Positions 42,197 to 62,287 of a stretch of DNA of 64,000 nucleotides are shown in pieces (position 1 is the stretch's first letter; each line of letters opens with the position of its first letter). This DNA comes from Chthoniobacterales bacterium (GTDB lineage: Bacteria; Verrucomicrobiota; Verrucomicrobiia; Chthoniobacterales; JACTMZ01), in assembly GCA_044371145.1 (NCBI GenBank), contig JBILUI010000001.1:3497-67496 (forward strand). The letters run 5' to 3'. The notes beneath the pieces are model-generated. The model saw nothing but the letters and a program-made list of their open reading frames with translations. It did not search any database and was not told where the DNA came from. The position numbers and the translations under genes are program-made.

Positions 42197-42972
42197 GGAA
42201 GGTCCCAATCCTCTTTGCCCAGCCCGTAGCGCTGCGCCTGCTCCTCCAGAAAGATCTCATCTTCCTTGGTGAAATATTTTTTCCACTCCCCGGCGACGCC
42301 TTTTCGCGGCAGCACGGAAATGGCGTCATGTAAGCCCACCGCTTTCTGCCGCCAACGCGGCAGTGCTCCGGTCGATCGGCAGATGTCCCGCACCACGCGG
42401 CGAAAATCGCTCTTTATTTGCTCAAAACGGATCACGCAGATGTCTGGAACGGAAAGCCAACCGGAGACATGCGAGGCCCAACGGGCTGCCACGCTATCGA
42501 AACTTGCTGCGTCGGAAAAACCGTGCTTGAGGTAGTCGGTCAAAGGACGTCGCAAAAATTCCGCGAAGCTTTCGCAGCGCTGACTCTCGAGACCGGGATT
42601 GGTGCGATGGAGTTCGTCGCTGTTGAGGTAGTGGAAGAACGATACCAAGGTGTCTCGAGGATCACGCCAAACGTAAACCACCGGAGCCGCCGGATACCAC
42701 TCGCGGAAGAGATGAGCATCGGCGTGCGTCTTGACCAAACCTCCGCCATTCTTCCATAGGGGCCACTCGCGGCGGAAATCCTCGAGGTGCCGATGGCGAC
42801 TCTCAGGCCGGTCGTAGGGACCGAGCCAATCGCCGACGTAGCGCAAGTGCGGCCGGACGTAGGCGTTGGCAAAAATCGTATTGATCATGAAGTGCGTCCC
42901 GGATCTTTCGTGCGACACGACATAGAACGGTGTCTTCTTGCAGAGGATCCCGAAGATCAGCCGGTCGATCAT
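42193..42972 (-). CDS. PAPS-dependent sulfotransferase (Sulfotransfer_1/3-like)
   Basis: 5-prime-PSB loop YVVSHERSGTHF and 3-prime-PB motif VYVWRDPRDTLVSFFHY. I chose the ATG at 42972 (MIDRLIFGIL). The ORF-track start 43239 runs into the upstream GT2. Confidence 0.85.
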   Translation of the reverse strand: MIDRLIFGILCKKTPFYVVSHERSGTHFMINTIFANAYVRPHLRYVGDWLGPYDRPESRHRHLEDFRREWPLWKNGGGLVKTHADAHLFREWYPAAPVVYVWRDPRDTLVSFFHYLNSDELHRTNPGLESQRCESFAEFLRRPLTDYLKHGFSDAASFDSVAARWASHVSGWLSVPDICVIRFEQIKSDFRRVVRDICRSTGALPRWRQKAVGLHDAISVLPRKGVAGEWKKYFTKEDEIFLEEQAQRYGLGKEDWDLP

Positions 42973-43001
42973 GGATAACGCAGCTTTTTTTCCGCCGGCG
43001 C

Positions 43002-44120
43002 CTACCTCTTGCCGAAAGTGTCCATTCCCTTGCGGTAGAGAAAGACGCGCAAGTCGCGCAGGCCGCGACTCAAAGCGGAATTCAAGCGTTCGACGAAGGA
43101 CATCTGGTGGCGCGCGATCTTCTTTGCCTTGCGGTAAAGTGCCGCGTGGCCCGGCGAAGGGCAGGGAGCCGTGGAGAGTTCCAACTCTAAAAGTTTTCGC
43201 ATGCGCGACGGGGACCGCGGGACGCGATGCAACAGCCAATCTTCGATCGCATAGCGCTCCTTCAAGATTTGGTAGCGCGACGGCGACGTGAACTCTGCCG
43301 CCAAGTGCGCCGCGGCGCTACCCTTGCGGAGTCGATAACTAACCGTGCGTTCGGGGACATAGACCCGGCGACCGCCGCCTAAGGCGGAAGACATCAGCAC
43401 GACCTTGTCGGCGAAAGCCCGCACAAAAGGTCTCGCAGTTCGCGCAAACTCCTCCAGTTCGAGGCGTTTGGCGTGGTGGGCACGCAAAGAAAGAGTGGAG
43501 GTATTGTTGCCCAAGAAAAGATCGGGCAAGAAGTAAACCAAAGCCGTGCAGTATCCCCAATCATACGGTTTTTCCCAATCAATAGGGCCCAAAAGGCCCT
43601 TGAAGTCCATGGCCGATAAACTGCGCTTGAACGCGCCGATCAGATCACTGTCCCCGGTCATGGAGAAGCGGCAATAGATCAAATCAGCTTGGGGAAACTC
43701 ACTCCATCGGCGACGCATGGCCGCCAAATGACCGGGTTGGTAGCTGTCATCGCCATCGAGCAGTGTCACAATCTCCTGCCGCGAGGCCGATACGCCAGAC
43801 CCAATGGCCGCTGTTTGCCCGCGATTTTCGGTGTAGATGGTCTTTATGCAGGAGTGCCGGGCAGCCAATGCCCCGATGATTTCCCTCGAATTGTCGGTGC
43901 TCCCGTCATCGACGACGATGATTTCCTCCGGAGGTTCCGTCTGCGAGAGCACGCTTTCGATGCACTCGGCAATGTAACTTCCATTATTGTGGTTGTTGAT
44001 GAGAACTGCTATTGATGGATTGTGCACAGCGGTAATAGCCTTTCGGAACGGAATTTTGCTTTGGCAGACACGGAAAATAGAAAGAGCAGAGAAAACGCAG
44101 CACTGCTTGCGGTGCGACAT
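43002..44120 (-). CDS. Glycosyltransferase family 2
   Basis: IAVLINNHNNGSYI, IIVVDDGSTDNS and LLDGDDSY motifs. The C-terminal tail RVFLYRKGMDTFGKR is shared with the GT2 at 44304. Confidence 0.85.
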   Translation of the reverse strand: MSHRKQCCVFSALSIFRVCQSKIPFRKAITAVHNPSIAVLINNHNNGSYIAECIESVLSQTEPPEEIIVVDDGSTDNSREIIGALAARHSCIKTIYTENRGQTAAIGSGVSASRQEIVTLLDGDDSYQPGHLAAMRRRWSEFPQADLIYCRFSMTGDSDLIGAFKRSLSAMDFKGLLGPIDWEKPYDWGYCTALVYFLPDLFLGNNTSTLSLRAHHAKRLELEEFARTARPFVRAFADKVVLMSSALGGGRRVYVPERTVSYRLRKGSAAAHLAAEFTSPSRYQILKERYAIEDWLLHRVPRSPSRMRKLLELELSTAPCPSPGHAALYRKAKKIARHQMSFVERLNSALSRGLRDLRVFLYRKGMDTFGKR

Positions 44121-45500: not shown

Positions 45501-46175
45501 TCATCGGCGGTAATAGCCAAAGAGCCTCATGTCGGAATCGTAGAGTCTCTCGATTCTGCCACGCGACAGGTCATCCAGGCCGCTGCGCCCGTCTTCCGGC
45601 AGCGAGGAATTCTGCCTGGGGATAAAATCGACTTTGAGGTCGAGCATGGACAGCATGCGCTCCAAATCCGATTCGAACGACTCCATGCGTCCGAGAAGAT
45701 CGATGTTCCCCAAGTCGACAAGCCGGGCCTGGCGGCGCAGATGGACATCGCAGCGATCGAGATCGAGGCCCTCGGCAAACGCGATGAATTCGCCGAGCTC
45801 TTTCATCCTTGCGTGATCGGAACTGCCGAATCCGAAATGGTTGCGCTCGAGCACGCGATCGCGCCAGCAGGACAAGAAGCGCTCGACGGGATCGCGGACG
45901 AAAGCGAACTTGAAATGATTCCGAACGGCTGCAGGGCGGTAATGCTGGAAGATACCGTTCTCCAGTTCGAAAACCGCACCGGCTTTTCGCAGGACGTCAA
46001 AGATCGTTCTCGTCCCGACTTTGGCCACGCGAAACCAGACGAACTTCGGTTCTCTTCCTATGGTCAGGTTGTAGCGCTGCTGGGAAGGGTAGAAACCCTG
46101 GAGAACCGCTCTCCTTGCGATGGCCTGGAAAGCGTCGTTGCGCCAACCGGGACGCGTTTCAGGAAGGTCGTGCAT
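45501..46175 (-). CDS. Sulfotransferase family 2 (carbohydrate sulfotransferase-like)
   Basis: WFRVAKVGTRTIFDVL (PAPS 5-prime-phosphosulfate loop), FAFVRDPVERFLSCW, DVHLRRQ and LGRMESFESDL, in the order typical of the Sulfotransfer_2 family. Confidence 0.8.
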   Translation of the reverse strand: MHDLPETRPGWRNDAFQAIARRAVLQGFYPSQQRYNLTIGREPKFVWFRVAKVGTRTIFDVLRKAGAVFELENGIFQHYRPAAVRNHFKFAFVRDPVERFLSCWRDRVLERNHFGFGSSDHARMKELGEFIAFAEGLDLDRCDVHLRRQARLVDLGNIDLLGRMESFESDLERMLSMLDLKVDFIPRQNSSLPEDGRSGLDDLSRGRIERLYDSDMRLFGYYRR

Positions 46176-46848
46176 GGTTCAAGCGGGACAGGAACCGCGT
46201 CGTGACTTTGCGCAAGAAATGCCTGAGGCCCCAGACATGCCCGACGCCGCGCACCAGGTAAGGCGGCGCAGGAATGGGATCGAGACCGTTGCGTAAAGCC
46301 CACGCATTGTAGGCACGGAAATTTGCCTGGTAGTAAGGATCCGCGTCTTGCGTTGCCGCAGAGGATTTGGCGTGGGAGCGGTGGTCAATATAGCCGGTGA
46401 GGTTTTCGTAATTGCCCGCTTTTTCCATCGCCCTGGAAATCCACCAGTCTACGTACGAGGCACCAATGTGTAACTTGGGGATATCTTTGGAAAGATAATC
46501 ATCCCATATCCGCAAAGGGATATAATACATATCGATACCGTGTACAAAACGTCCGCTCGGAACCTCCCGGCGGCGGAATCCGTAAACGCGGTCCGGATCG
46601 GGCACATCGAATGGGTCGCGCGTGAGTTCGACATCGGAGTTGCACCACACCAAAGCGCGGGCGGAGGTCTCACGGCGGGCTCGGTCAATGACATCACCCA
46701 AGAGGACGAGCCGACGGCCGGCCGGAAATCGGACAGGCGTTAACCCGAGACCAACAATGCTTTTATCCAGGCGTTCTTGCGCCGAATGGAGTCGCGCGTT
46801 GTCGGAGTCGGTGAGCCAGACAAATGTGACGACTCTGTTCTCCTTCAA
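46159..46848 (-). CDS. Hypothetical protein (no family recognised)
   Basis: 229-aa ORF. TTG start forms a TTGA overlap with the upstream stop (46845..46848). Lower-GC block. Confidence 0.45.
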   Translation of the reverse strand: MKENRVVTFVWLTDSDNARLHSAQERLDKSIVGLGLTPVRFPAGRRLVLLGDVIDRARRETSARALVWCNSDVELTRDPFDVPDPDRVYGFRRREVPSGRFVHGIDMYYIPLRIWDDYLSKDIPKLHIGASYVDWWISRAMEKAGNYENLTGYIDHRSHAKSSAATQDADPYYQANFRAYNAWALRNGLDPIPAPPYLVRGVGHVWGLRHFLRKVTTRFLSRLNHARPS

Positions 46849-49303: not shown

Positions 49304-50287
49304 TCAGCAACACACCCGCTTCTTGGCGATTAGATCGCGCAATTCGAAGCGCACCGGACAGCTGCTACGGAAAAGCCAGCCAACAATATGGCCCCACCCC
49401 CATCGGCGCCCCGCCCGCAGGTTTTTGCGCGTGGCTCGCCACCAACCCCGCCAAGTGCCGTCGAACTGACTCCACCAGACGACGTCCATTTGACGGTAAA
49501 CCATGCCCTGAAGTTCCGGGTAACGCTGCCGCATGACCCGACTTCCAAGCAGAGAGATTAGCCTGTCGATCCTGAGTCGCTTCTTTTCTTCCAAGCCAAG
49601 CGGCGACCAGATTCCAGCAGAGTGCTGCCGGTAGGCGCAGCCATCGAAGTCCTCGAAGCCCAACAGACCGTGTTCGGTCACGAGAAGATCGAACATGAAA
49701 TCATAGGGAGTCCGGAGGTAATAGTCGGGCGTTTCGCCCATAACACACGACTTGCGAAACACAAGCGACGCCGTCGGGTATCCTGATCGCAACTCGCGGA
49801 GACAATCGGCCTGCGTGTATTCGCCCCGGTAAGCAAGTCCGTCCCAGACAAAGGGAATGATATTCCCGCCCTCGTTGACGGCATGACCCCGGTGAAAGAC
49901 AGCGGCCCAAGCCGGTTCGGACTGCAGTCGGCGCACTTGACGCTGCAATTTGGATGGCTCGGTCCAAAAGTCATCTCCTTCGCAGAGGGCTATGAATTTT
50001 CCGCGAGCGGAGCGGAATGTCTCGATCCACATGGAGCCGAGTTCCCCGCGTGAATAGCGGTTCGAAGCCTGACGATTCCACCGGAAGCGATCCGGATGTG
50101 ACTCCGCATAAAAACTCAACAGGCCCGGTGTATTGTCGGTCGAAGCGTCGTCGTTGACTATGATCTCGAACGGAAAATCCGTCCTTTGGGCCAAAAAGGA
50201 GTCGACGGCCTGGCGGATGAAGCGCTCGTGGTTGTAAGCAAAGCACACCACGCTGACAAGCGGAGCGGTCCCGGACCGAGTGATCAT
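49304..50287 (-). CDS. Glycosyltransferase family 2 (paralogue of the C-terminal half of 55385..57493)
   Basis: APLVSVVCFAYNHERF, IIVNDDASTDNT and CEGDDFWT motifs. I chose the ATG at 50287 (MITRSGTAPL). The ORF-track start 50488 overlaps the DegT gene. Confidence 0.85.
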   Translation of the reverse strand: MITRSGTAPLVSVVCFAYNHERFIRQAVDSFLAQRTDFPFEIIVNDDASTDNTPGLLSFYAESHPDRFRWNRQASNRYSRGELGSMWIETFRSARGKFIALCEGDDFWTEPSKLQRQVRRLQSEPAWAAVFHRGHAVNEGGNIIPFVWDGLAYRGEYTQADCLRELRSGYPTASLVFRKSCVMGETPDYYLRTPYDFMFDLLVTEHGLLGFEDFDGCAYRQHSAGIWSPLGLEEKKRLRIDRLISLLGSRVMRQRYPELQGMVYRQMDVVWWSQFDGTWRGWWRATRKNLRAGRRWGWGHIVGWLFRSSCPVRFELRDLIAKKRVCC

Positions 50288-50319
50288 GTCTGGAAATCGG
50301 AGCTTTCCACCGCGGACGC

Positions 50320-51459
50320 TTAACTTAGCAGGCATCTGATGAGCCCGCAGATGCGTTCGACATGAGAGCAATCGACGGATTGCCCGGTGGGCAAAACGAT
50401 CACGCTTTCGGCGACAGCCTCGGAATGCACCAGATTGTTGGACCGCCCGGACAATTCGGTCCGATAAGGCTCCATGCGATGGCAGCACGGCCAGAAATAC
50501 CTTCGCGCGATGACGTTTTCCGCATGCAGCGCGTTGACGATCTCGTCGCGCGATTTCCGACAGACTTTGGGGTCAACTTCCAACACAACGTATTGAAAAT
50601 TGCTCATGTCCTGCGGGTTGTATCGCAGGAGCGAAAGACCCGGAAGATTCCGCAAACCGTCGCGGTAAGCCTCGTAGTTGGCACGGTTGCAGGCGACGAT
50701 CTCTTCCATTGCTTCGAGACTGGTCAGCCCCATGGCTGCGCCAATCTCGCTGAGTTTCCCGTTCACACCCAGACCCACAACATTGTCAAAGCCCGCGAAC
50801 CCGAAATTTCTCATCAAACGCATGCGGGCGGCCAGATCGTCATGGTTGGTCACAATCGCACCGCCCTCGAAACAATTGACGAATTTGGTCGCGTGAAAAC
50901 TGAACACTTCGCATTGCCCGAAGTGGCCGATCATGGTCCCGTCGTGGGAGCAGTGGAAGGCGTGCGAGGCGTCATACATGACTTTAAGTCCATGCCGCTG
51001 CGCCAGGAGATCAATCGCGTTGCTTTCGCAGGCCCTCCCCCACAAATGGACACCGACGATACCCGACGTCCTGTCCGTGATCAGCGGTTCAATGGCACGC
51101 GGATCGATGTTGTGAGTGCGCGGATCGATGTCGGCAAAAACCGGAGTCAGGCCCAGCCAGCGCAAAGCGTGGGCGGTCGCGACGAAGGTGTAGGACGGAA
51201 CAATGACCTCGCCGGTCAAACCGATGGCGCGCGCGGCAATTTCCAAGGCGACCGTTCCGTTGCAGACCGCCACGCAATGCTTGACCCCGATAATCTGCTG
51301 AATTCTGGATTCGAATTCCTGCACCAAAGGCCCGTGATTGGACAAAACACGCCGATCGAGAATTTGATCGATGCGCGCGTGCAAAGTTGCACGGTCCCCT
51401 ATGTTCGGTCGCCCGACATGAAGGGGTTCGGCAAAAATCGGTTTCCTTGGAGTCTTCAA
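50320..51459 (-). CDS. DegT/DnrJ/EryC1/StrS family sugar aminotransferase
   Basis: PLP-lysine context EVFSFHATKF, plus CNGTVALEIA and DASHAF. The TTG at 51459 forms a TTGA overlap with the upstream stop and gives (M)KTPRKPIFAEPLHVGRPNIG. The ORF-track ATG starts (51543/51516) overlap the upstream gene by 60 nt or more. Confidence 0.9.
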   Translation of the reverse strand: MKTPRKPIFAEPLHVGRPNIGDRATLHARIDQILDRRVLSNHGPLVQEFESRIQQIIGVKHCVAVCNGTVALEIAARAIGLTGEVIVPSYTFVATAHALRWLGLTPVFADIDPRTHNIDPRAIEPLITDRTSGIVGVHLWGRACESNAIDLLAQRHGLKVMYDASHAFHCSHDGTMIGHFGQCEVFSFHATKFVNCFEGGAIVTNHDDLAARMRLMRNFGFAGFDNVVGLGVNGKLSEIGAAMGLTSLEAMEEIVACNRANYEAYRDGLRNLPGLSLLRYNPQDMSNFQYVVLEVDPKVCRKSRDEIVNALHAENVIARRYFWPCCHRMEPYRTELSGRSNNLVHSEAVAESVIVLPTGQSVDCSHVERICGLIRCLLS

Positions 51460-52208
51460 TTCCGCTTCCCGCGCTTCGGTGCCACACGCCTGCCGGCGCC
51501 CCAGCAGCACCCGCATTTGCCCGTTGCCGGCGGTCGATACCACGGATCCTCGGCGGACGAAGCTCTCAAAATTCTCGCCGGATTCCCGGCGACCACCTTT
51601 TCGTCACCCACGTCGCGGATCACCACACTGCCGGCACCGACCATCGAACCGCATCCTATCGATACGCCCGGGGCCAAAACAGCGCCGGCGCCGACCCACG
51701 AGAAGCAGCCGACGTGGGCACCACCACAAAGCACGGCACCCGGGGAAACGTGGGCGAAACAGCCGATCGAGCAGTCATGCTCCACGATCGCGCCGGAATT
51801 GATGATGGTCCCGCGTCGCACGACCGCGCGCGCCCCCAACACGGAGCAAGGGCCGGCCACAACGCACTCTCCGGCCTCCGCGCTTGCGGCCACGACTGCC
51901 GAAGGATGGATCGCACGGCTACATCGCAACCCTGCCCGGCGCGCTTTGGCTTCGGAACGGAATCGACCCAATGAATTGCCCATGGCCGGCAGAAAAAGGG
52001 CGTCTGGACCGCCGGCTGCCGCCAGTGCTTTCTTCCAACCGTGGTGAACATGCTCTTCGGAAGCTGGCGCTGTATTCTCATCAACGCCAAAGAAAATACG
52101 CGCCCCGGGAAAGACCAGCCGCGCAATCTCCGCCACGAAACGGGCATGGCCCCCGGCGCCCCAGAGAAGAACCGGGAGCGACTCATGGTGAATTTTGCTC
52201 CGCTTCAT
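51456..52208 (-). CDS. NeuD/PglD-type LbH sugar N-acyltransferase
   Basis: N-terminal Rossmann-like LLWGAGGHARFV followed by hexapeptide repeats (GAIVEHDCSIGCFAHVSPGAVLCGGAHVG..VGAGAVLAPGVSIG..VGAGSVV). The ATG at 52208 forms an ATGA overlap with the upstream stop. Confidence 0.85.
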   Translation of the reverse strand: MKRSKIHHESLPVLLWGAGGHARFVAEIARLVFPGARIFFGVDENTAPASEEHVHHGWKKALAAAGGPDALFLPAMGNSLGRFRSEAKARRAGLRCSRAIHPSAVVAASAEAGECVVAGPCSVLGARAVVRRGTIINSGAIVEHDCSIGCFAHVSPGAVLCGGAHVGCFSWVGAGAVLAPGVSIGCGSMVGAGSVVIRDVGDEKVVAGNPARILRASSAEDPWYRPPATGKCGCCWGAGRRVAPKRGKRN

Positions 52209-53119
52209 GACTCCGCCAGCTTCGGGTTGAGCCATGTCTGGACACCGTCTTGGAAGTCTATCTCCCCGAATGGTGTGGCCTGTCTGGAACGCGTCGCAAA
52301 GTCGTTGATCTTGGTCCAACCGAGCGCGCCGAAGCATCGCCTCAGACCTTCCTCTATGTCACTTCCATGAGTGCCGATGTGGACTCTCTTGACCAGTCTG
52401 TCCAGTGACTCGCGCGAATCCTCGACAACCTCCAGTTCCGCACCCTGGATATCCATGTCCAACAAGTCGACCGGGCCCGTTTTGGCCAAGACGTCCGGAA
52501 GATTGACCACCCTGACTTTCGCGAGGTGCCGCTTTCCGTCGATCCGGTGCCTCCACCTCTTGAGCGCAGCCCGCAGCGCGTGAAAACCGTGGGATCTCAA
52601 GCTGGGAACTGCATCTTCGCGATACATGGCCGCGCCATAAGTCTCGCGCGGCTCGCCGACCTCAAACCAGGCACGACGGCCACGGGTGCGAGCGCCAACC
52701 GCTGCTTCAATGAGCACGTGTGCGGAGGGATCAATTCCGTTGTCGATGAAGTGTTGGGAGATATAGGAAAAGCGGGAGGGCTCCGCCTCGACGGCGACAA
52801 GGAGGGGCTGTACATCGGATGTCTGCCTGAGCGCCGCAGCTGCAGCGACAACCCACGCTCCGTAGCCGGCGCCCAGCTCGATCATGACAAAACGTCCGCG
52901 AGATGAATGGACCGCGCTGAGGATCTCAACCCATTCAAAATACGATTCGTTGAACTCCGGAAGATCACCAGGTTTTATTTTAACGCGCCAGCGTGACATA
53001 TCCATGAAGGATTCGCGTGTCTTCACCCCGAGTCCGTTCACAATGAGCCCTGGCTCCTGCGGGCGGAGCCTGAAGTCAAAGTGTGAAAATACAGGGTGGT
53101 GAGCGGGTGGCTTTTCCAT
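52205..53119 (-). CDS. FkbM family methyltransferase
   Basis: MIELGAGYGAW (motif I) and VDLLDMDIQGAELEVV, typical of FkbM. Confidence 0.8.
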   Translation of the reverse strand: MEKPPAHHPVFSHFDFRLRPQEPGLIVNGLGVKTRESFMDMSRWRVKIKPGDLPEFNESYFEWVEILSAVHSSRGRFVMIELGAGYGAWVVAAAAALRQTSDVQPLLVAVEAEPSRFSYISQHFIDNGIDPSAHVLIEAAVGARTRGRRAWFEVGEPRETYGAAMYREDAVPSLRSHGFHALRAALKRWRHRIDGKRHLAKVRVVNLPDVLAKTGPVDLLDMDIQGAELEVVEDSRESLDRLVKRVHIGTHGSDIEEGLRRCFGALGWTKINDFATRSRQATPFGEIDFQDGVQTWLNPKLAES

Positions 53120-53161: not shown

Positions 53162-53884
53162 TTATAAGCGACACGCACGCTGGATATCCACGTGGACGCA
53201 GGAGGCTCCGACGCGAAGCGCCAAATTGTAGCCGCGGTCCTTCATGAAACTTGCTATGCTTGAGTCTTGCGTTCCGAAGTCCTCCACAAGCACTACAGTC
53301 GGGCGGAAACGATCCCAGTTGTTGGAGCGAAGCACTTCGAAATCATGCCCCTCGCAATCGATGTCAAAAAGATCGATGGGGCGTCCGGGCTCCCAGTGCT
53401 CTCCAAGTAAGGCGCCCAGAGTAACGGGACGCATCACATCCCCCTTTTCCGCACCCGCGTGACCGGTGATGCGGTCGGAAGGCCTACCCGCTACGGAAAC
53501 AGCCAACTTTTCGTCACGGTCGGAAACTGCAGCGCAGACAAACTTGTCGCGGGGCCGCAAGAGACTGAAAGAAGCCTCATGCTGCAGATTCATGTCCACA
53601 ACAAGCCCGGACCCCCCGCGCTGATAAAATCTGTAAGTGTTTGAATGCTCGATCGGATGAAAACATCCGACATCGACGTAGGAATACGGCCGCTTGCAAC
53701 CGGCTTCATCAAGCAGCTTTTCCAAGACAAGATCCTCACCGCACTGCGAAAAAGACAGGCGGGCAAAAGGAAGACAGTGTGCAGGCCACTGGCTGTAGCG
53801 GACATGACAGGTCGCAGAAAGCAACCTCTGCGCCAACGATTGCAGCCGTTTTTGCAGAAACTGAGGAAGGTGCATGAGAATCAA
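53162..53884 (-). CDS. FkbM family methyltransferase
   Basis: FSQCGEDLVLEKLL, YVDVGCFHP and IDLFDIDCEGHDFEVL. The TTG at 53884 forms a TTGA overlap with the wzt stop; an ATG at 53875 is also possible. Confidence 0.8.
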   Translation of the reverse strand: MILMHLPQFLQKRLQSLAQRLLSATCHVRYSQWPAHCLPFARLSFSQCGEDLVLEKLLDEAGCKRPYSYVDVGCFHPIEHSNTYRFYQRGGSGLVVDMNLQHEASFSLLRPRDKFVCAAVSDRDEKLAVSVAGRPSDRITGHAGAEKGDVMRPVTLGALLGEHWEPGRPIDLFDIDCEGHDFEVLRSNNWDRFRPTVVLVEDFGTQDSSIASFMKDRGYNLALRVGASCVHVDIQRACRL

Positions 53885-55101
53885 ACCGAAAAATCCGCGG
53901 AAAGAATCGAAAAAGACTTCGGGAGAAAGTCGACAATCGGAGGGCGGGACACCTCATGGTAGCGATCGACTCGGCCGTTCGGCCAGAGGACCCAGCTCTC
54001 ACGTGCCCCGGACTTGATGAGCAGATGCCGTGCCCTGTCGGCATGAAACTGGGACAACTCGGGCGTGATCGCGTGGACGACGATATCGGGAGCAGCGCTC
54101 CAGGAGGGTTCCGTCCGCAGCGTCTGCATGCGCGCGTCCGAAACCCAACCCAAGTCGGCCACCACACAACCCTCGGATGTCTCAACCGGGGCATTGAGCA
54201 CCACCTGGCCTTTTCCCAAGCGGCGCGAAAACAGACCGGCCAATTTTCCCAAAAAAAGCCCGGTCCTGCTATCGGGCAGCCCGGGTTCGCCGGCCTGGGA
54301 GTCCGTCTTGAGGTGCAGCGACTCGAGATAGCGGTCGGTCACTTCGCGAGCGGTTCCTTCGGCGACCAAACGCCCCTCTTCGAGCAGAATTCCCTTTGTG
54401 CAGAGCTTAAGCACGCTTTGGCTCGAATGGCTGACAAACAGGATCGTAACCCCGGAATTTTTGATCTCGTCGATTCGGTTGAGGCACTTCTCCTGAAACT
54501 TGGCATCGCCGACAGCGAGCACTTCGTCGAGTACAAGTATTTCGGGCTCCAAATGAGCCGCCACGGCGAAAGCGAGGCGCACGCGCATACCGCTAGAGTA
54601 TCGTTTCACCGGCGTGTCCATGAAATCGGGTATCTCGGCAAATTCGGCAATTCGCTCGTAGCGCTCCTGAATTTCTTTGTCTCTCATGCCCAAAATGCTG
54701 CCATTGAGAAAAACGTTTTCCTTGCCTGTCATCTCGTGGTTGAAGCCGGTGCCCACTTCGAGAAGGCTGGCCACACGGCCCTTGATTTTCGCCGTTCCGG
54801 TCGTCGGGGAGGTAATACGCGAAAGCAGCTTCAGCAATGTTGATTTGCCGGACCCATTGCGTCCCATGACACCAACGATGTCGCCCTGTTCGATCTTGAA
54901 GCTCACGTCTTTCAGCGCCCAGAAGTCGTAGGGGGTCGGTAGGCGATCTGTCGCATGCTCGAATACGGACGAATGAGGATCCGGCTTGCCAAGCTTGCGA
55001 GCCACCCAGCTTTCGATTTGATCGACGAGCATTCGCCGGTTGATCACACCAAGGCGGTATTTTTTGGAGAGATTTTCGACTTTGATGACGGTGTCGGACA
55101 T
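53881..55101 (-). CDS. wzt: Polysaccharide ABC exporter ATP-binding protein (Wzt/TagH-type) with atypical C-terminal domain
   Basis: Walker A GRNGSGKSTLLK, signature YSSGMRVRLAFA, Walker B ILVLDEVLAVGD. About 150 extra C-terminal residues follow (see finding on Uma2-like resemblance). Confidence 0.92.
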   Translation of the reverse strand: MSDTVIKVENLSKKYRLGVINRRMLVDQIESWVARKLGKPDPHSSVFEHATDRLPTPYDFWALKDVSFKIEQGDIVGVMGRNGSGKSTLLKLLSRITSPTTGTAKIKGRVASLLEVGTGFNHEMTGKENVFLNGSILGMRDKEIQERYERIAEFAEIPDFMDTPVKRYSSGMRVRLAFAVAAHLEPEILVLDEVLAVGDAKFQEKCLNRIDEIKNSGVTILFVSHSSQSVLKLCTKGILLEEGRLVAEGTAREVTDRYLESLHLKTDSQAGEPGLPDSRTGLFLGKLAGLFSRRLGKGQVVLNAPVETSEGCVVADLGWVSDARMQTLRTEPSWSAAPDIVVHAITPELSQFHADRARHLLIKSGARESWVLWPNGRVDRYHEVSRPPIVDFLPKSFSILSADFSV

Positions 55102-55384: not shown

Positions 55385-57493
55385 TCAGTCATCGCCTGTG
55401 TCGCGGGTGTCGACCAGGCGGCGGAAGCAACGGAGTGGTTTGGTAATCTTCCAAGAGAGGCTTTGCTTCATCGACTGCCATCCTGTGGCCTCTCTTTTGA
55501 TCTTGCGTCTCACCATTTCGAGGTGGCCGCGAATGCACTGCCCGTAAACTCGTCGCAGTTCATCATCCAGCAGCAGTTCGTTGAACATTTCGTAGTTTCG
55601 GAGGTAGCGGCCGACTTTGCTGCCGCCAATCCAGGCACCGGAACCGTGCTGACGATAGACAGACATGTTCGCATCCAAGACACCCAAATCACCGTGTTTG
55701 GTGATAGCTATATCCAGAGTAGTATCGCGCGGTCGGTTCAGAAGGTAGGCAGGCATGTCCTTGAGCGCAGACCGGCGGAAAACGAGAGAAGCTGTCGGGT
55801 AGCCGCTGAGCAACCACTCCACGCAATCTTGCCGGGTGTAGCGTCCGGCTTGCCGGTTTATACAGGAATCCATGAGAACTTTGCCGCTTTCATCAATCAC
55901 CCTAGCGTCATGGATACAGCCGACGCAGTCGGGATTCGTGCGCAAAAAGTCGATCTGCTTCTGAAGTTTGTGCGGGCTGGTCCAGTAATCGTCACCCTCG
56001 CACACGGCAATGAACTCGCCCCGGCAATGCGCCAGACAAGAAAGCATGGGCGATTCTCCACGCTCGCGCGAGTTCGTTGCGTAGAAAACCGGACGGATGA
56101 TTCTCCGGTTAGTTGCAGCGTGTCGCCGGATAATCTCATCCGTTCCATCGGTGGATGCGTCATCTTGCAAGACGATCTCAACGCGGAAATCCGTCTCCTG
56201 CATGAGAAAACCGGCGATGGCGTCGCCGATCATGTGCGCCTGGTTGTAAGTGTAGCAGCAGATGCTGACGAGGGGAGCTGTCCCATCCGACCAGTCGTGA
56301 CTCGTGATCGCAACAGGCGCCCCTAGTTGGGGGGCGGCATCAGGAGGATCGATCCGGGAGCCGACAATCCGCGCGCCGAGCGCTTTGTGAACAGCCTCGC
56401 AAACCCGGCGCACTGCTTCCTCGCTGATGGCTTGACCGGTGGGCAAGACAATCACTTTGGCCGCGACCTGTTCAGTCGCCGGCAAGCTTGTCTCAGAGCC
56501 TACACGGGCCGAGAGATAAGGCTCCATCCGATGGCAGCCCCGCCAAAAATACCGACGGGCGAGAATGCCTTCGGCGTGCAATGCCGCGACTAACTCATCG
56601 CGGCTCATCATGCAGTGCGCAGGGTCGACTTCGAGGACAATATATTGAAAATTCCCCTGCTGTTGCGTGTCATAGTCCAACACACGAATCCCGGGGAGAT
56701 CCGTCAGCAGCTGACGATACAGCTCGTAGTTGCGCCGGTTCTTCTCCACGAACCCGTCCATCGACTCGAGGTTGCACAGTCCCATCGCCGCGCAAACTTC
56801 CGGCATTTTCGCATTGATGCCCGGGCCGACAACCGAGTCATGGCCGTCGAAACCGAAATTTCTCATCAGCCGCATCTTGTCGGCCAGCGCGTCGTCGTTG
56901 GTGGTGATGACACCGCCCTCGAAAGTGTGCACGAATTTCGTTGCGTGGAAACTGAACACCTCGCAGTCGCCGAAGTTGCCAACCATCGTGCCGCCGCGCG
57001 AGCACCCGAAGGCATGCGACGCGTCATAGATAACTTTGAGGTCGTGTTGCCGCGCGATCCCTTCGATCGCCGCCGTGTCGCAAGGAGTTCCCCACGCATG
57101 GACACCGACCACGGCTGACGTGCGGGGCGTGACAGCATGCGCGATCTTCACGGGATCGATGTTGTGCGTCGCCGGACCGATGTCGACAAAGACAGGTTCC
57201 AATCCGATCCATTCGAAGGCATGCGCCGTGGCCACGAAAGTGAAGCTCGGCATGATCACCTCGCCCCGCAGCCCGAGCGCCTTCGCCGCGATCTGCAATC
57301 CAAGCGTTCCGTTGCAAACCGCTACCGCGTGCGGCACACCCAAAGTGTCGCAAATCTTGCGTTCGAATTGCTGAACAAGAGGTCCTCCGTTCGTCACCGG
57401 GCGCGGCGCCAGCAGATCTTGCACCCGCTGAAGATAAGCTCTCTCGTCGGGCATGTTGGGCAAACCGACGTGGAGTTTGGTCGCAGGTCTCAT
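55385..57493 (-). CDS. Fusion protein: DegT-family sugar aminotransferase (N) + GT2 glycosyltransferase (C)
   Basis: The first ~375 aa carry CNGTLGLQIA, DASHAF and EVFSFHATKF. After a linker come APLVSICCYTYNQAHM, IVLQDDASTDGT and CEGDDYWT. Each half aligns with the separate genes at 50320..51459 and 49304..50287. Confidence 0.88.
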   Translation of the reverse strand: MRPATKLHVGLPNMPDERAYLQRVQDLLAPRPVTNGGPLVQQFERKICDTLGVPHAVAVCNGTLGLQIAAKALGLRGEVIMPSFTFVATAHAFEWIGLEPVFVDIGPATHNIDPVKIAHAVTPRTSAVVGVHAWGTPCDTAAIEGIARQHDLKVIYDASHAFGCSRGGTMVGNFGDCEVFSFHATKFVHTFEGGVITTNDDALADKMRLMRNFGFDGHDSVVGPGINAKMPEVCAAMGLCNLESMDGFVEKNRRNYELYRQLLTDLPGIRVLDYDTQQQGNFQYIVLEVDPAHCMMSRDELVAALHAEGILARRYFWRGCHRMEPYLSARVGSETSLPATEQVAAKVIVLPTGQAISEEAVRRVCEAVHKALGARIVGSRIDPPDAAPQLGAPVAITSHDWSDGTAPLVSICCYTYNQAHMIGDAIAGFLMQETDFRVEIVLQDDASTDGTDEIIRRHAATNRRIIRPVFYATNSRERGESPMLSCLAHCRGEFIAVCEGDDYWTSPHKLQKQIDFLRTNPDCVGCIHDARVIDESGKVLMDSCINRQAGRYTRQDCVEWLLSGYPTASLVFRRSALKDMPAYLLNRPRDTTLDIAITKHGDLGVLDANMSVYRQHGSGAWIGGSKVGRYLRNYEMFNELLLDDELRRVYGQCIRGHLEMVRRKIKREATGWQSMKQSLSWKITKPLRCFRRLVDTRDTGDD

Positions 57494-57544
57494 AAACCTC
57501 TTTTTCTTATTGCCGCTGAGATGAGATACCGAAACACGCTACGC

Positions 57545-58210
57545 TCATATGGTCACCGAACGAGCCGGCACGCCGAAGACGGTCGATCCCGCCGGAACAT
57601 CGCGCGCGACCACGGACCCGGCTCCTACCGTTGCCCCGTCGCCGATGCGCGCGCCGGGAAGGATACTCGCATGCGGGTGAATGGTGACCCCGTCTCCAAC
57701 GATGACGCCACCACCGGCGAAAACAAAGGCGCCGACGTGGCAGCATTTGCCGAAACGCACATCGTGGCCGGCGGTCACATGTGCCGTCAGAAAAGTGTCA
57801 GCGCCGATGGAGACATCGCACGAAACAACGCAATACGGGCCGACCACGGCGCCGTCGGCCATTTCGACACCTCCGCCGATTTTGGCCGACGGTTCGCGCA
57901 AGACGGCAAACTTCGCACCGCGGCCACGCAACATGTCCGCGTATTTTCGACGATCGACCGAATTACCGATGGCGCAGACGAAAAGATCGTTCTCGCGCGG
58001 CCGGTAAAGCTGGGGCGTGCCGATGACGGGCGCTCCTACTGGGTCAATTCCGGGCCGGTCATCCAGAAATCCGGCAAGCTGCCAAACACAGCGTTCTCCC
58101 TCCGCCGATTGGATCCCGGCGGCCAAGTCGCGCACCTCGCGACCAAAGGCGCCCGCGCTCACGATGATGAGATTTTTCTTCACCGCAACGGCTGCACGAG
58201 ACCTTTCCAA
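57545..58210 (-). CDS. NeuD/PglD-type LbH sugar N-acyltransferase
   Basis: KKNLIIVSAGAFGREV followed by hexapeptide repeats (GPYCVVSCDVSIGADTFL..VGAFVFAGGGVIVGDGVTI..IGDGATVGAGSVV). TTG at 58210; a GTG at 58183 ((M)KKNLIIV) is an alternative start. Confidence 0.85.
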   Translation of the reverse strand: MERSRAAVAVKKNLIIVSAGAFGREVRDLAAGIQSAEGERCVWQLAGFLDDRPGIDPVGAPVIGTPQLYRPRENDLFVCAIGNSVDRRKYADMLRGRGAKFAVLREPSAKIGGGVEMADGAVVGPYCVVSCDVSIGADTFLTAHVTAGHDVRFGKCCHVGAFVFAGGGVIVGDGVTIHPHASILPGARIGDGATVGAGSVVARDVPAGSTVFGVPARSVTI

Positions 58211-58214
58211 AAAC

Positions 58215-59261
58215 TCAGACCTCGATAATTGGAGGACAAACCACCGGTCCGACTTCGCAAGCCAAGGTTCCCCATGAAAGCCCCACTCCGAACCCGCAGA
58301 GAAGAAGGCGAAGCCCTCCGTTCAGGAGTCGCGCGCCGAGTTGATCGACCATGGTGAGCGGGATCGTTGCCGAACTCGTGTTGCCGAAATCGGCCAGCGT
58401 GCCCGGACATTTTCCAGCATCCAACCTCAGCGATTTAACGATGGTATCGTTGATCAGCCGGCTGGCCTGGTGAAAAACGAAAGCATCGACTGAATCCGCC
58501 GACCATCCCGCGGCCTCCAAGGCAGCGCGCACGGCAGCGGGAACGACACGAACGGAGAAATTGAAAACGTCGGCACCCTTCATCTGATACTGCGTGTCGA
58601 AATATATCCGTCCGAGAACATCTTCCTTTGATGGAAGCGCCATCCCGTCCAAGCCGGGCTTGCCGCCGGAGCGCCTCTCCATGATGTAGTCCCATCCGCT
58701 CCCGTCGGTATGGAGCGAAAAGTGCATGGGCGCGGCCGCAGCGCGGCGCTCCAAGCCGACCGCAACTGCCGCATCGCCGAAGAGAGGCGCCCGAGGCGAC
58801 GCGGGATTCGGCTTTCCTGCTGCATCGCCGACGACAAGCAAAACCTTCGATGCCTCCGACGGGGCCAATAAACTCCCCGCGACGAGCATCCCATAGGGAA
58901 AACCGGAACACCCCAGATTGATGTCGAAAGCGGCACAGTCGGTCGAAAGACCGAGACGATGCTGCAGGATGCAGGCAGTGGACGGGTAGGCCACGTCGCC
59001 TGATTGCGTGACCACGACCAAAGCCTCGACTTCACTCTTATCCCAAACTAAGTCGGCGAGAATGCGCTCTGTGGCAAAGCGGGCGAGGTCGGAAAAGAAC
59101 AAGTCCGGCGGGCAGATACGCCTACGCAGAACACCGGTCGCGGACGAAAACCTCCGCCGCGCCTCCGGAGACTCGTAACCAGACTCCTCCACCGTCTCCA
59201 CGCTGGCAGGAACCGCCGCGCAGAGGCCGGCTAAATGGATGCCATGAAGAATGCTCTGCAC
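58215..59261 (-). CDS. 3-oxoacyl-ACP synthase III (FabH-like KAS III)
   Basis: Catalytic Cys in DINLGCSGF, His in FVFHQAS, Asn in FGNTSSATIP. The GTG start shares one nucleotide with the ACP stop. Confidence 0.88.
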   Translation of the reverse strand: MQSILHGIHLAGLCAAVPASVETVEESGYESPEARRRFSSATGVLRRRICPPDLFFSDLARFATERILADLVWDKSEVEALVVVTQSGDVAYPSTACILQHRLGLSTDCAAFDINLGCSGFPYGMLVAGSLLAPSEASKVLLVVGDAAGKPNPASPRAPLFGDAAVAVGLERRAAAAPMHFSLHTDGSGWDYIMERRSGGKPGLDGMALPSKEDVLGRIYFDTQYQMKGADVFNFSVRVVPAAVRAALEAAGWSADSVDAFVFHQASRLINDTIVKSLRLDAGKCPGTLADFGNTSSATIPLTMVDQLGARLLNGGLRLLLCGFGVGLSWGTLACEVGPVVCPPIIEV

Positions 59262-59497
59262 TAAAGTTTGCGCTGCACGAGCGCGATTAGATCCTTCAGA
59301 GAGCAGCAGGATTCCAACTCTTCACCCGAGACCTGCACGCCATAATCAGCGTAAACCTCCGCAACAAGCATGACAGCAGTTAACGAGTCCCAGCCCTCCA
59401 AGTCGCGCAGAACGCTGGTCAGAGCCAAACCCTGAGGAGCTTGTGCAAAGGCATTGTGCACCGCCGCGAAAAACTTTTCCTGATCGATCTCAGCCAT
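59261..59497 (-). CDS. Acyl carrier protein
   Basis: 78-aa acidic protein with the phosphopantetheine-attachment context LEGWDSLTAVML. Confidence 0.85.
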   Translation of the reverse strand: MAEIDQEKFFAAVHNAFAQAPQGLALTSVLRDLEGWDSLTAVMLVAEVYADYGVQVSGEELESCCSLKDLIALVQRKL

Positions 59498-59732: not shown

Positions 59733-60167
59733 TCAGGGCGTCAGCAGTTCCACGCGCAGACCTTGGGACCGGAACAAATCAAAATCCGCGTCACGCGTAA
59801 CCCAAGTGCAACCGTGCTCGAAGGCAAGCGCTGCATGCTGGGCATCCGCCACCAGTTTGCCTTTGGCCGACACAGACTCGCAAAATGACCTCATTATGGT
59901 CCAATGCCGCTCGTCGGGTCCGAGCACAACACGACCGCGTGCAGCTAAGATCGAATCGATCACCGCAAGGGCCTGGGAAAGTGGAGTGGGCCTTGGCTGA
60001 AAGCCAGGATGTGTTACCACACGGACGAAGGACGCTGCCACCAAGAGCGAAAGCGCGAAAGGTTCGCCACCATTGACCAGACGCTCCATCCACTCCCGGT
60101 AAAAATCATGATCCGGGTCCTCGCGACGATGCGCGTAGACCAGAGTGTTCACGTCGGGCATGAGCAT
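59733..60167 (-). CDS. vapC: PIN-domain toxin VapC (type II toxin-antitoxin)
   Basis: 144 aa. Acidic PIN residues are in the expected contexts (MPDVNTLV, ...DAQHAALA, VTRDADF). It follows a small antitoxin ORF after a 5-nt gap. Confidence 0.88.
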   Translation of the reverse strand: MLMPDVNTLVYAHRREDPDHDFYREWMERLVNGGEPFALSLLVAASFVRVVTHPGFQPRPTPLSQALAVIDSILAARGRVVLGPDERHWTIMRSFCESVSAKGKLVADAQHAALAFEHGCTWVTRDADFDLFRSQGLRVELLTP

Positions 60168-60172
60168 CCTTC

Positions 60173-60391
60173 TCAGCGCCCATCATCGCGCAACGCGGCC
60201 AACTGCGACGGGGTTTGATGGATACCCGCAGGCTCGCCGAAAACAGGCATGGAGAACTGCTCCCTCCCCGTCCCGCTCCGGCGGTCGGAAAACAGGTGCT
60301 GTCGCAGGGCGGTGTTGACCAGATCGCTCAAGGTTTTGCCGGTGTTGGCCGCCTCGCGCTTGGCATGGCGAAAGACTTGATCGTTCAACAC
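60173..60391 (-). CDS. vapB: VapB-type antitoxin (ribbon-helix-helix)
   Basis: LNDQVFRHAKREAANTGKTLSDLVNTALRQHL is an RHH pattern. The GTG at 60391 is the first canonical start, but the stop-free in-frame upstream codons read KRITLV, which would complete the RHH beta-strand. The true start is therefore uncertain. Confidence 0.75.
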   Translation of the reverse strand: MLNDQVFRHAKREAANTGKTLSDLVNTALRQHLFSDRRSGTGREQFSMPVFGEPAGIHQTPSQLAALRDDGR

Positions 60392-60455: not shown

Positions 60456-61313
60456 TCAGAGAATATCGACGCACGTCCTCTGCGTCCGGTTGAACATAAC
60501 GAGGCCGACCAACACTACCGCGATGCTGATAAAAAAGCTGACAACGATTTGCCAAAGATAGACGGTGCCATGGCCCATGAAGGCGAAGCGGAACGCCTCG
60601 ATGATAAAAACCATCGGATTGAGCGCGTAGACCCAGCGCCAGTTTTCCGGGACCATACTCAGCGGGTAAACCACGCAGCTGGCATACATCCAAAGCTGCA
60701 TGAAAAAGCTGAGCATGATTTGCAGGTCGCGAAAACGGGTGGTCACGGCGGAGACCATGCAGCCGACGCCCAAGCCGAGCGCGGCCATTTGCAACAAAAG
60801 CACGGGCAACACGACGATGCGCCAACCCATGGCGATGTCCGCCCCTTGGTGGAAATAATACACGTAAAAAATGAGAAAAAGCACCATTTGCATTCCGAAG
60901 CCGATGAGATTCGCAATAAGTTGAGAGATAGGCACGACCAGTCGTGGGAAGTAGACCTTGTCGAACAATCCGCGGTTGGAACTAAAGGTGGCCGCCGTAT
61001 TGGTGACGCAGTTGTTGAAGTAGCCCCAGCAAACGGTGCCGGCCAAAAAGAAGAGCAGGGGGGGTATTTCTCCGGTGGAAATCTTGGCGATCTTGTTGAA
61101 AACGAGGGTGAACATCAGGCTGGTGAACAGGGGCTGAATCACATACCAAGCCGAGCCAAGGATCGTCTGCTTGTAGCGCGAGACAAAATCGCGATGCACC
61201 AGGCGCATGATAAGTTCCCGGTATTCCCAAATTTCGCGGAAAGGGATATGGAGCAGTTTGTGCTCGGACGTGATGACCGTCGTCCACTGCGGGTTTTGGA
61301 CTGTTGAATTCAT
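60456..61313 (-). CDS. wzm: Polysaccharide ABC exporter permease (ABC-2 type, Wzm)
   Basis: 285 aa. N-terminal REIWEYRELIMRLVHRDFVSRYKQTILGSAWYVIQPL is typical of Wzm/TagG/KpsM permeases. About six hydrophobic segments. Confidence 0.92.
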   Translation of the reverse strand: MNSTVQNPQWTTVITSEHKLLHIPFREIWEYRELIMRLVHRDFVSRYKQTILGSAWYVIQPLFTSLMFTLVFNKIAKISTGEIPPLLFFLAGTVCWGYFNNCVTNTAATFSSNRGLFDKVYFPRLVVPISQLIANLIGFGMQMVLFLIFYVYYFHQGADIAMGWRIVVLPVLLLQMAALGLGVGCMVSAVTTRFRDLQIMLSFFMQLWMYASCVVYPLSMVPENWRWVYALNPMVFIIEAFRFAFMGHGTVYLWQIVVSFFISIAVVLVGLVMFNRTQRTCVDIL

Positions 61314-61568: not shown

Positions 61569-62084
61569 TCAGAGCTTCATGAAGCGGATGAGCCAGGGGA
61601 GAATCTTGCGCCCTTTGTCGAGCCAGTGCTTGAGGCGGTCGATGCGGTCGCGGGTGGCGCGGCGTTCTTTGGGCGGCAACTCTGCGAGCGATTCCTCCAT
61701 GCGCCGGATCCTTTCCGCTGCCATATCGATGCGAGGCTGGAGCTCGTCCTTGATGAAGGCCGTCGCGAAACGGCTGAGCTCCAGGTCGGCCACATAGTGG
61801 TCGCGACGATCACCACGCTCGTAAACCACCCGCACCGCCCCGAAAGAACGCAGGAGCTTCAGGCCTTGGCTGGCCGCGCCCAGGCTGATGCCGAGCCGGC
61901 CCATGATCTCGTCCATGGCCATCGGTTTGGGGGCCACAAAAAGCAGCCCGTAGATTTCACCAACCGATTTGGGCAATCCTATGAGGCGCAAGAAGTTGAT
62001 AAACATCTCGATCGCCTCGACCTCCAACTCGGTCAGGCGACTCTTGTCTTCCTCCACAAAAAGCGGCGGCGGCACAGTGCGCAT
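61569..62084 (-). CDS. GbsR/MarR-type winged-helix transcriptional regulator
   Basis: Winged-helix region PMAMDEIMGRLGISLGAASQGLKLLRSFGAVRVV followed by a helical C-terminus. I chose the ATG at 62084 (MRTVPPPLF). The ORF-track start 62141 extends into an A/T-rich promoter-like stretch. Confidence 0.72.
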   Translation of the reverse strand: MRTVPPPLFVEEDKSRLTELEVEAIEMFINFLRLIGLPKSVGEIYGLLFVAPKPMAMDEIMGRLGISLGAASQGLKLLRSFGAVRVVYERGDRRDHYVADLELSRFATAFIKDELQPRIDMAAERIRRMEESLAELPPKERRATRDRIDRLKHWLDKGRKILPWLIRFMKL

Positions 62085-62287
62085 CTTATAGGGCACGATT
62101 TCAGGAGCTTCAAGAAAAAATGAAATAATTGATACGCCCACGCACCGGTTTATCGAAGTGGGAACGAGAATCCTAAAGCTGTTGCCTTTGCCCTTGCCCG
62201 GCCGCGCGGAGAATTGCCTGATGGTCTTGTGCGGCGGTGGAGCCTCAACAGAATCCTACTGGGAGCGGGATTCCCGGAAAAACAACA

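Follow-up and report, generated by a model that had tools for sequence, protein, structure and literature searches.

We report that the ATPase Wzt of a glycan exporter encoded in a 64,000-nucleotide stretch of a Chthoniobacterales genome (GenBank assembly GCA_044371145.1, contig JBILUI010000001.1, positions 3,497 to 67,496; the whole stretch is hereafter called the window) ends in a diverged, N-terminally truncated Uma2-type domain. This tail takes up the last ~130 residues of the protein (core 279-385) and sits exactly where canonical Wzt proteins carry a beta-sandwich carbohydrate-binding domain (CBD). The exporter is of the Wzm/Wzt type (ABC-2 / type V), combining a Wzt/TagH-type nucleotide-binding domain (NBD) with an ABC-2 permease inside a glycan-biosynthesis cluster. 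A first reading of the sequence alone, hereafter the original prediction, had proposed a degenerate Uma2 fold for this tail; our results add that the tail belongs to a whole family and that it co-varies with the glycan gene downstream of wzt. The PD-(D/E)xK fold of the tail and its homology to Uma2 are close to certain. We put forward, far more tentatively, that the tail may well act as a non-catalytic cargo-recognition (or cap-recognition/gating) module of the exporter, replacing the usual CBD.

The wzt gene and its parts are located as follows.

53881..55101, minus strand: wzt, ATP-binding cassette (ABC) transporter ATPase of 406 amino acids with a non-canonical C-terminal domain, from the list of open-reading frames (ORF); stop codon 53881-53883.
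54319..55101, minus strand: NBD of Wzt, residues 1-261, from the alignment to Aquifex aeolicus Wzt and the full-length AlphaFold 2 (AF2) model.
54319-54351, minus strand: 'hinge' helix of Wzt, residues 251-261, with the family-invariant Tyr258, from the full-length model and the alignment.
54268..54318, minus strand: linker of Wzt, residues 262-278, variable and predicted to be flexible, its C-terminal end being the conserved motif G.PESR.G; from low predicted local distance difference test (pLDDT) scores and high column entropy.
53947..54267, minus strand: Uma2-like domain (PD-(D/E)xK fold), residues 279-385, from AF2, Foldseek, profile matches and hhalign.

The peptide quoted in the original prediction, GKGQVVLNAPVETSEGCVVADLGWVS...AAPDIVVHAITPELSQFHADRARHLLIKSGARESWVLWPNGRVDRYH, is present at residues 296-382 of the 406-residue frame; the upper coordinate then given for the tail, 54335, misses the reading frame by one base, as the codon of residue 256 has its boundary at 54336. 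A full-length protein search revealed that public contigs carry a protein (P0001) identical to the window Wzt. Residues 63-194 match Pfam ABC_tran (E 4.5e-24), and the NBD matches the NCBIfam models TagH (2.6e-64) and galactan Wzt/RfbE (3.6e-59), both under the equivalog cutoffs. Its best solved relative is Aquifex aeolicus Wzt (E~1e-65, aligned over residues 52-261), and this homology ends at residue 261 even against the 404-residue chains 8DKU and 7K2T, which include the CBD. In the full-length AF2 model (pLDDT 75, predicted template-modelling score, pTM, 0.55), helix 251-261 closes the NBD, residues 265-276 fall below a pLDDT of 50 and residues 278-385 reach 84-93. Given this succession of NBD, low-confidence linker and well-predicted C-terminal domain, Wzt is predicted to consist of two modules joined by a flexible tether. 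In the alignment, Tyr258 of the hinge helix falls on the first of the two Tyr residues in the Aquifex motif QAYYKL (SEQRES position 233 in 8DKU), and Tyr233 of the Aquifex 'hinge helix' has been described as the key NBD residue touching the O antigen (PMC9445017), an equivalence that assumes that the numbering of that study equals the 8DKU SEQRES index.

Searched as a single sequence, the tail matches no Pfam or NCBIfam family (E<=10), and phmmer against the PDB retrieves only 6OKH, with an E-value of 0.46. Because single-sequence searches are too weak, we resorted to family profiles, using an alignment (A2) of 50 non-redundant family tails with pairwise identity below 62%. Against the PDB, the A2 profile matched 3OT2 (5.6e-5), 9Y1L (7.6e-5; named 'putative restriction endonuclease domain-containing protein') and 6OKH (3.1e-4), all of the Uma2/DUF820 type, and the next match was noise. 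Against a database of 5.8 billion proteins, it reached P0130 (E 6.6e-9) and P0131 (1e-4), both of which are genuine Uma2 proteins scoring 69 and 50 bits against a Pfam cutoff of 27, and hhalign of A2 with P0130 returned a probability of 98.6% and an E-value of 9.5e-16 over 116 columns. Taken individually, 18 of the 50 tails give a match to Pfam Uma2, though a weak one (best E 5.4e-4), with no other family recurring, and none of the 50 matches Pfam Wzt_C at E<=10. A Pfam or HHpred scan was among the checks proposed with the original prediction, and the outcome of our Pfam and profile searches, with Uma2 reached through the family profile and no match to Wzt_C, bears out the likeness to Uma2 that it had pointed out.

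The structural evidence points to the same family. The AF2 model of the isolated tail (pLDDT 88.7, pTM 0.80; low confidence at tail residues 1-22) is an alpha/beta fold with no beta-sandwich. In tail numbering, its elements are helices 23-39 and 96-108 and strands 43-53, 56-66, 85-89, 113-117 and 122-127; in Wzt numbering, the domain comprises alpha1 278-294, beta1 298-308, beta2 311-321, a short helix 322-325, beta3 340-344, alpha2 351-363, beta4 368-372 and beta5 377-382. The modelled core thus follows the alpha-beta-beta-beta-alpha-beta topology that the PD-(D/E)xK superfamily requires, with helices on either side of a mixed sheet. An AlphaFold model searched with Foldseek had also been proposed as a check, and it placed Uma2 structures on top: the seven best matches are chains of the four solved Uma2/DUF820 entries (9Y1L, 3OT2, 1WDJ and 6OKH; probability 1.0, E 4e-7), followed by other restriction-endonuclease-like folds (3IJM, AF1548, Cas4 and Hjc), and no Wzt CBD appears among the matches of the tail model. 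With the Aquifex homology stopping at residue 261 and no tail matching Wzt_C, the claim that this is not the usual carbohydrate-binding domain holds.

These data bear directly on the possibility that the tail is a canonical CBD diverged past recognition, or a functionless relic in decay, to which its position and size, the one identical and the other similar to those of the CBD, could be taken to point. The hidden CBD is refuted by the alpha/beta fold, the Uma2 homology with no jelly-roll and the lack of Wzt_C matches among the 50 tails, and decay is at odds with 12 tail residues that are invariant across 32 members and with a domain that remains intact in more than 100 clusters over a bacterial order; we therefore give this explanation almost no credence. 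The tail itself is more aptly called a diverged offshoot of Uma2 than a member of the family, since it falls short of the Pfam threshold and lacks both the full active-site signature and the N-terminal subdomain.

The active site of COG4636/Uma2 has been defined as H-PD-EXX-K, with the Asp and Glu residues 'practically invariant' (Feder & Bujnicki, PMC551604), and nuclease activity is a prediction even for Uma2 itself (PMC3424549). We read the signature positions from an alignment of 119 family tails with P0130 and P0131.

54154..54156, minus strand: codon of Asp316, the beta2 Asp and the sole residue of H-PD-EXX-K that is kept (D in 96, E in 21 and other residues in 2 of 119 tails).
54073..54075, minus strand: codon of His343, which stands in beta3 where Uma2 has its catalytic Glu (S40, N34, G11, C8, A7 and others; Glu in 1 of 119).
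54031..54033, minus strand: codon of Ala357, which stands in alpha2 where the catalytic Lys of Uma2 has migrated (D64, A16, N15 and others; Lys in 0 of 119).

The beta2 position is thus acidic (Asp or Glu) in 117 of the 119 tails, and the positions of the catalytic Glu and Lys are hypervariable across the family. The segment bearing the signature His is absent, for the tail lacks the whole N-terminal subdomain that precedes alpha1: its alignment to P0130 begins at residue 58 of the latter, and the Wzt sequence before that point is NBD and linker. Judged by the loss of the Glu, Lys and His of the Uma2 signature, the tail looks non-catalytic, and classical metal-dependent nuclease chemistry is probably gone from it. 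The original prediction had read this site accurately, placing a His (VVHAI) at the expected Glu, which we confirm as His343, and an Arg-rich stretch at the expected Lys, where Ala357 is flanked by Arg356 and Arg358; its view of a degenerate site with nuclease activity probably lost extends to the family. A tail that is still an enzyme, either a nuclease or a phosphodiesterase with an active site rearranged around Asp316, Asp339, Glu331 or Glu307, would draw on the known migration of catalytic residues in the PD-(D/E)xK superfamily (PMC551604) and on the near-invariant acidic residues of the domain (E307, D316, E331, D339 and E368). It would, however, have to dispense with a 'practically invariant' Glu and the Lys, lost at positions that are now hypervariable, and with the His of the missing N-terminal subdomain, and it is hard to see what a nuclease in the cytoplasm, fused to a glycan exporter, would act upon, so that we hold this reading to be very improbable.

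Conservation within the family is unevenly distributed, both between the two modules of Wzt and along the tail. Over 6,903 pairs, mean identity is 82.5% for the NBD versus 49.6% for the tail, with a correlation of 0.36 between the two. Two segments of the domain are set apart in the alignment.

54085..54150, minus strand: family-specific, near-invariant loop GW(V/I)S..R..T(L/M)RTEP.WSAAPD, residues 318-339, between beta2 and beta3, from the alignment columns.
54016..54084, minus strand: hypervariable stretch, residues 340-362, covering beta3 and alpha2, with the lowest conservation in the domain; it defines the tail subtypes.

The first part of the loop, GW.S..R..T.RTEP.W (318-334), has no counterpart in P0130 or P0131, and AAPD (336-339) is common to them. 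Together with PVET at the end of beta1, D.GW.S in beta2 and GA.E.W in beta4, the R..T(L/M)RTEP.WSAAPD segment of the loop makes up the invariant stripes of the tail. The hypervariable stretch coincides with the elements that bore the Glu and Lys of Uma2, that is, with the former catalytic pocket.

To analyze co-variation, we used all loci in which wzt is complete and followed by an ORF, metagenome loci included. Dereplication at 97% identity left 29 loci, which were grouped according to whether their first genes after wzt are homologous; tail identity was regressed on NBD identity and the group labels were permuted. In the window, this downstream gene encodes an FkbM-family methyltransferase.

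53162..53884, minus strand: FkbM-family methyltransferase directly downstream of wzt (Pfam Methyltransf_21, 2e-12); public gene calls start at 53875.

Depending on the start codon chosen, a gap of 6 bp separates this gene from the wzt stop or the two overlap by 4 bp. Pairs of loci compare as follows.

Same downstream gene type, 22 pairs: tail identity 0.677, NBD identity 0.829.
Different downstream gene type, 384 pairs: tail identity 0.512, NBD identity 0.818.

The excess tail identity in same-neighbour pairs is 0.151 (permutation p=0.0005; a smaller, earlier set of 17 loci with 8 same-type pairs, which was underpowered, gave p~0.06). Within residues 340-362, identity is 0.62 in same-neighbour pairs versus 0.41 in different-neighbour pairs. 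The largest neighbour group is that of FkbM genes homologous to 53162-53884, found in the window and in L006, L027, L031, L032 and L033, and five of these six loci share one tail subtype, with the signature PD(I/V)VV..(I/V)....SQ..A...R...(V/I)K.GARESWV.WP.G.V.RY.E. This subtype, present in 24 of the 119 family tails, is hardly distinguishable by its NBD, with an identity of 0.826 within the subtype versus 0.812 to the rest, as compared to 0.715 versus 0.481 for the tail. The locus with the nearest NBD relative of the window, L028 (0.91), nonetheless bears another tail subtype (tail identity 0.495). By these comparisons the window subtype is not an NBD clade, and the histories of NBD and tail are discordant, with modules exchanged at the linker. 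The tail, in turn, is exchanged together with glycan-specific genes, and the first FkbM gene is a candidate for a chain-end modifying enzyme linked to the window tail subtype.

The same coupling between the tail subtype and an FkbM gene that lies directly downstream, and the co-variation of tail and downstream gene in general, could also arise if the tail bound a protein. It might recruit the neighbouring methyltransferase, or another subtype-specific biosynthetic enzyme, and so scaffold chain termination or assembly. Recognition of the enzyme's product fits the same data equally well, and the locus in which an FkbM gene accompanies another subtype (L006) counts here as well; we deem recruitment unlikely.

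In the cargo-recognition reading that we favour, export of the undecaprenyl-linked polymer by Wzm/Wzt would be licensed for finished chains only, a task that the CBD performs in E. coli O9a, Raoultella and Aquifex. The scaffold, and possibly the docking surface on the conserved NBD and hinge helix, would be the invariant stripe (PVET, D.GW.S, R..TLRTEP.WSAAPD and GA.E.W), and the part that reads a feature specific to the glycan would be the hypervariable former active-site pocket (beta3 and alpha2, residues 340-362). In the window, the feature read would most likely be a methylated chain end made by the adjacent FkbM-type methyltransferase. The narrower proposal that a vestigial Uma2 cleft has been converted into a reader of chain-end modification, probably of an O-methylated terminal sugar produced by the adjacent FkbM enzyme, is possible but doubtful. 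Were it true, it would represent the first carbohydrate or cap recognition module on a PD-(D/E)xK fold and an independent evolutionary route to the 'export only finished chains' quality control of ABC-dependent polysaccharide export, and the exchangeable tail subtypes would constitute a specificity cassette across Chthoniobacterales.

Several observations weigh against a recognition role. The L006 locus has an adjacent FkbM gene and another tail subtype, and the tail subtype SRKRS.QEAE.DNHF occurs beside several different downstream genes. Since the tail physically adjoins the downstream gene, linkage and recombination breakpoints alone could explain the co-variation, with no functional coupling. 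Lastly, the most conserved tail residues are identical in loci with different glycans, as would be expected of a conserved partner more than of a variable ligand. This last pattern lends itself to a further explanation, in which the dead Uma2 domain is a dimerisation or ATPase-regulating clamp that joins Wzt subunits or docks on the NBD and binds no glycan. The strongest conservation is indeed that of the invariant stripe common to loci with different glycan genes, as would suit a conserved partner, for instance the NBD with its 82% identity; each of the four solved Uma2 entries contains at least two chains, and dimers docking on the NBD are also known for canonical CBDs (PMC9445017). A clamp would nevertheless leave unexplained the hypervariability of beta3 and alpha2 and the link between subtype and neighbour at constant NBD identity, and the full-length model shows no fixed arrangement of NBD and tail (pTM 0.55). 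We consider a clamp rather unlikely, and retain cargo recognition as our tentative reading.

The survey for other Wzt proteins with this tail, also proposed with the original prediction, uncovered a whole family. At least 120 clusters (90% identity) share the NBD plus Uma2-like tail architecture, and the full-length search returned more than 100 relatives that cover 93-99% of the query. A genome scan located 18 loci, all in Verrucomicrobiota metagenome-assembled genomes labelled Chthoniobacterales, Spartobacteria, Terrimicrobiaceae or Chthoniobacter, and a metagenome scan yielded 37 further loci. The exporter with the Uma2-like tail belongs to soil and freshwater Verrucomicrobia, across a bacterial order, a taxonomic limit that is a lower bound because both scans relied on a single peptide pattern, [ED]P[TSA]W[SN][AG]APD. 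Loci L019-L021, from Frigoribacterium, were rejected as spurious: the L019 match lies on the strand opposite an amidase gene, in another reading frame, within high-GC DNA. Loci L066-L068 of the metagenome scan were excluded by their likeness to L019 (only tail residues 16-91 matched). False-positive status was read directly in L019, and L020, L021 and L066-L068 were assumed to be alike. In all 120 listed members, public Pfam annotation comprises only ABC_tran/AAA_21 and leaves ~145 residues with no assignment, an annotation gap that the Uma2-like domain now fills. Our searches of the literature turned up no account of a Wzt with a Uma2-like tail, nor anything relevant on Wzt in Verrucomicrobia; such an absence is no proof of novelty, but it is consistent with the suggestion, made in the original prediction, that a repurposed fold in this place would be new.

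The window is a large glycan cluster on the minus strand, ordered from upstream to downstream as wzm, wzt, the FkbM pair and sulfotransferases. Its remaining transport, methyltransferase and intervening genes are the following.

60456..61313, minus strand: wzm, the ABC-2 permease partner (Pfam ABC2_membrane, 1.2e-23), 5.3 kb upstream of wzt.
59261-59497: ACP-like gene.
58215-59261: KASIII gene.
57545-58210: PglD-like acetyltransferase gene.
55385-57493: DegT-GT2 fusion gene.
52205..53119, minus strand: second FkbM-family methyltransferase (Pfam 2.9e-7; NCBIfam fkbM_fam 2.6e-12, above the cutoff).

Wherever a related locus offers enough DNA, a wzm homologue (67-82% identity) is found upstream of wzt, in most relatives adjacent to it or within ~0.5 kb; the window and L016 are exceptions. 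In the relatives, wzm and wzt head clusters of varying content, and each cluster inspected has a candidate end-modifying enzyme, be it an FkbM protein, a sulfotransferase, an APS kinase or an APH kinase with a methyltransferase. The last of these combinations is seen in L027 (18701-20434, the P0034 locus), where a class I methyltransferase gene comes after one for an APH-type kinase, a pairing reminiscent of the WbdD chain terminator of E. coli O9a. In the window, the genes between wzm and wzt are, in order, a VapB-like gene with a PIN gene, followed by the ACP-like, KASIII, PglD-like acetyltransferase and DegT-GT2 fusion genes, and the presence of these last four suggests that the intervening genes make an N-acylated amino sugar. 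Beyond the two FkbM genes follow an acetyltransferase, a DegT, a GT2, an MBOAT, two sulfotransferases and several more glycosyltransferases.

Some features of this neighbourhood stand apart from the exporter tail. Next to wzm sit a VapB-like ORF of 72 amino acids (60173-60391, minus strand) and a PIN gene (59733-60167, minus strand; Pfam PIN 2.5e-15), a pair that looks like a toxin-antitoxin system inserted in the glycan-export operon. A PIN gene also lies upstream of wzm in L010, and a 23S_rRNA_IVP gene lies between wzm and wzt in L025, which, taken with the window pair, makes the wzm/wzt junction a possible hot spot for insertions. Paralogous modules (49304-51543 and 55385-58210, minus strand) flank wzt and the two FkbM genes, each DegT/GT2 module with its own hexapeptide acetyltransferase; with the stand-alone genes, the 702-residue DegT-GT2 fusion shares 59% identity in the case of DegT (50320-51543) and 42% in that of GT2 (49304-50488). 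As listed, the two stand-alone ORFs overlap by ~170 bp, which may mean that a fusion was broken in two or simply that GT2 has a later start.

An ORF of 229 amino acids (46159-46848, minus strand), for which no Pfam or NCBIfam match was found, recurs downstream of wzt in L004, L008, L009 and L012 at 55-62% identity and is a conserved component of these glycan clusters. Unannotated genes of ~170 amino acids are found just upstream of wzm in L025 (7417-7935), L026 (7940-8455), L027 (5984-6496) and L028 (8113-8619), and the window has a 190-residue ORF with no Pfam match at 61569-62141 (minus strand). Sulfotransferase genes in the window (42193-43239 and 45501-46175, minus strand), L024 and L028, and an APS kinase gene in L025, hint that Verrucomicrobia with such loci make sulfated surface glycans. 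We considered the invariant tail arginines as sulfate binders, given a sulfotransferase or APS kinase in the window and in three of the five relatives inspected, and rejected the idea, as nothing ties these genes to the tail subtype.

Several known systems invite comparison. With Uma2 (DUF820, COG4636, PF05685; solved as 1WDJ, the protein TT1808, and as 3OT2, 6OKH and 9Y1L), the tail shares a homologous alpha-beta-beta-beta-alpha-beta-beta core and three sequence blocks: (R/E)T.DG....D spanning beta1-beta2, AAPDI.V..S in beta3 and GA.E.W in beta4. It differs from Uma2 in lacking the first ~57 residues, conserved His included, in having lost the Glu and Lys of H-PD-EXX-K, in adding the unique, near-invariant insert GW.S..R..T.RTEP.W, and in being fused to an ABC ATPase, whereas Uma2 stands alone. 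The very large family of Uma2-like domains would thereby gain its first non-nuclease context for study.

With the Wzt_C CBD (PF14524), as known from E. coli O9a, Raoultella terrigena and Aquifex aeolicus (PMC9445017), the tail has in common its site after the hinge helix, a flexible tether and a similar size; as in the CBD, it diverges faster than the NBD, goes with glycan-specific genes and is found in loci that hold candidate chain-end modifiers. In fold, however, the restriction-endonuclease-like alpha/beta tail contrasts with the CBD, a dimeric jelly-roll beta-sandwich that is strand-swapped at its C-terminus, and the two have no sequence or profile similarity. Cap binding and a requirement in export belong to the CBD, whereas the role put forward for the tail derives from co-variation with downstream genes. 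In work by Cuthbertson and colleagues from 2005 and 2007, the C-terminal domain of the E. coli O8/O9a Wzt reportedly sets substrate specificity. To our knowledge, substrate gating in every Wzm/Wzt exporter studied is performed by one type of domain, the beta-sandwich CBD. The ATPases of the Wzt/TagH/TarH/RfbE type that have no accessory domain (6JBH, 9CFL and 9QFX) are close to the window Wzt in their NBD (E 1e-45 to 1e-56) and likewise pair with an ABC-2 permease, but they end at or soon after the hinge helix or bear unrelated extensions, while the window Wzt adds a folded domain of ~145 residues.

We know of no dead PD-(D/E)xK domain, in the searched literature or elsewhere, that serves as the accessory domain of a glycan ABC exporter. 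Reuse of such dead domains has been documented for the N-terminal domain of RPB5 and for the structural subunits of the tRNA-splicing endonuclease (PMC551604), where, as in the tail, the nuclease fold is kept and the catalytic residues are lost, but these domains serve nucleic-acid machinery. Against this background, the Uma2-like tail is a second, unrelated accessory domain at the CBD position, conserved in an abundant and poorly studied soil and freshwater lineage, and it suggests that the 'accessory reader' slot of Wzm/Wzt transporters is evolutionarily open. Its natural subtypes, set on near-identical NBDs and each accompanied by a different downstream enzyme, provide a clean experimental system for the study of polymer cargo recognition by ABC exporters.

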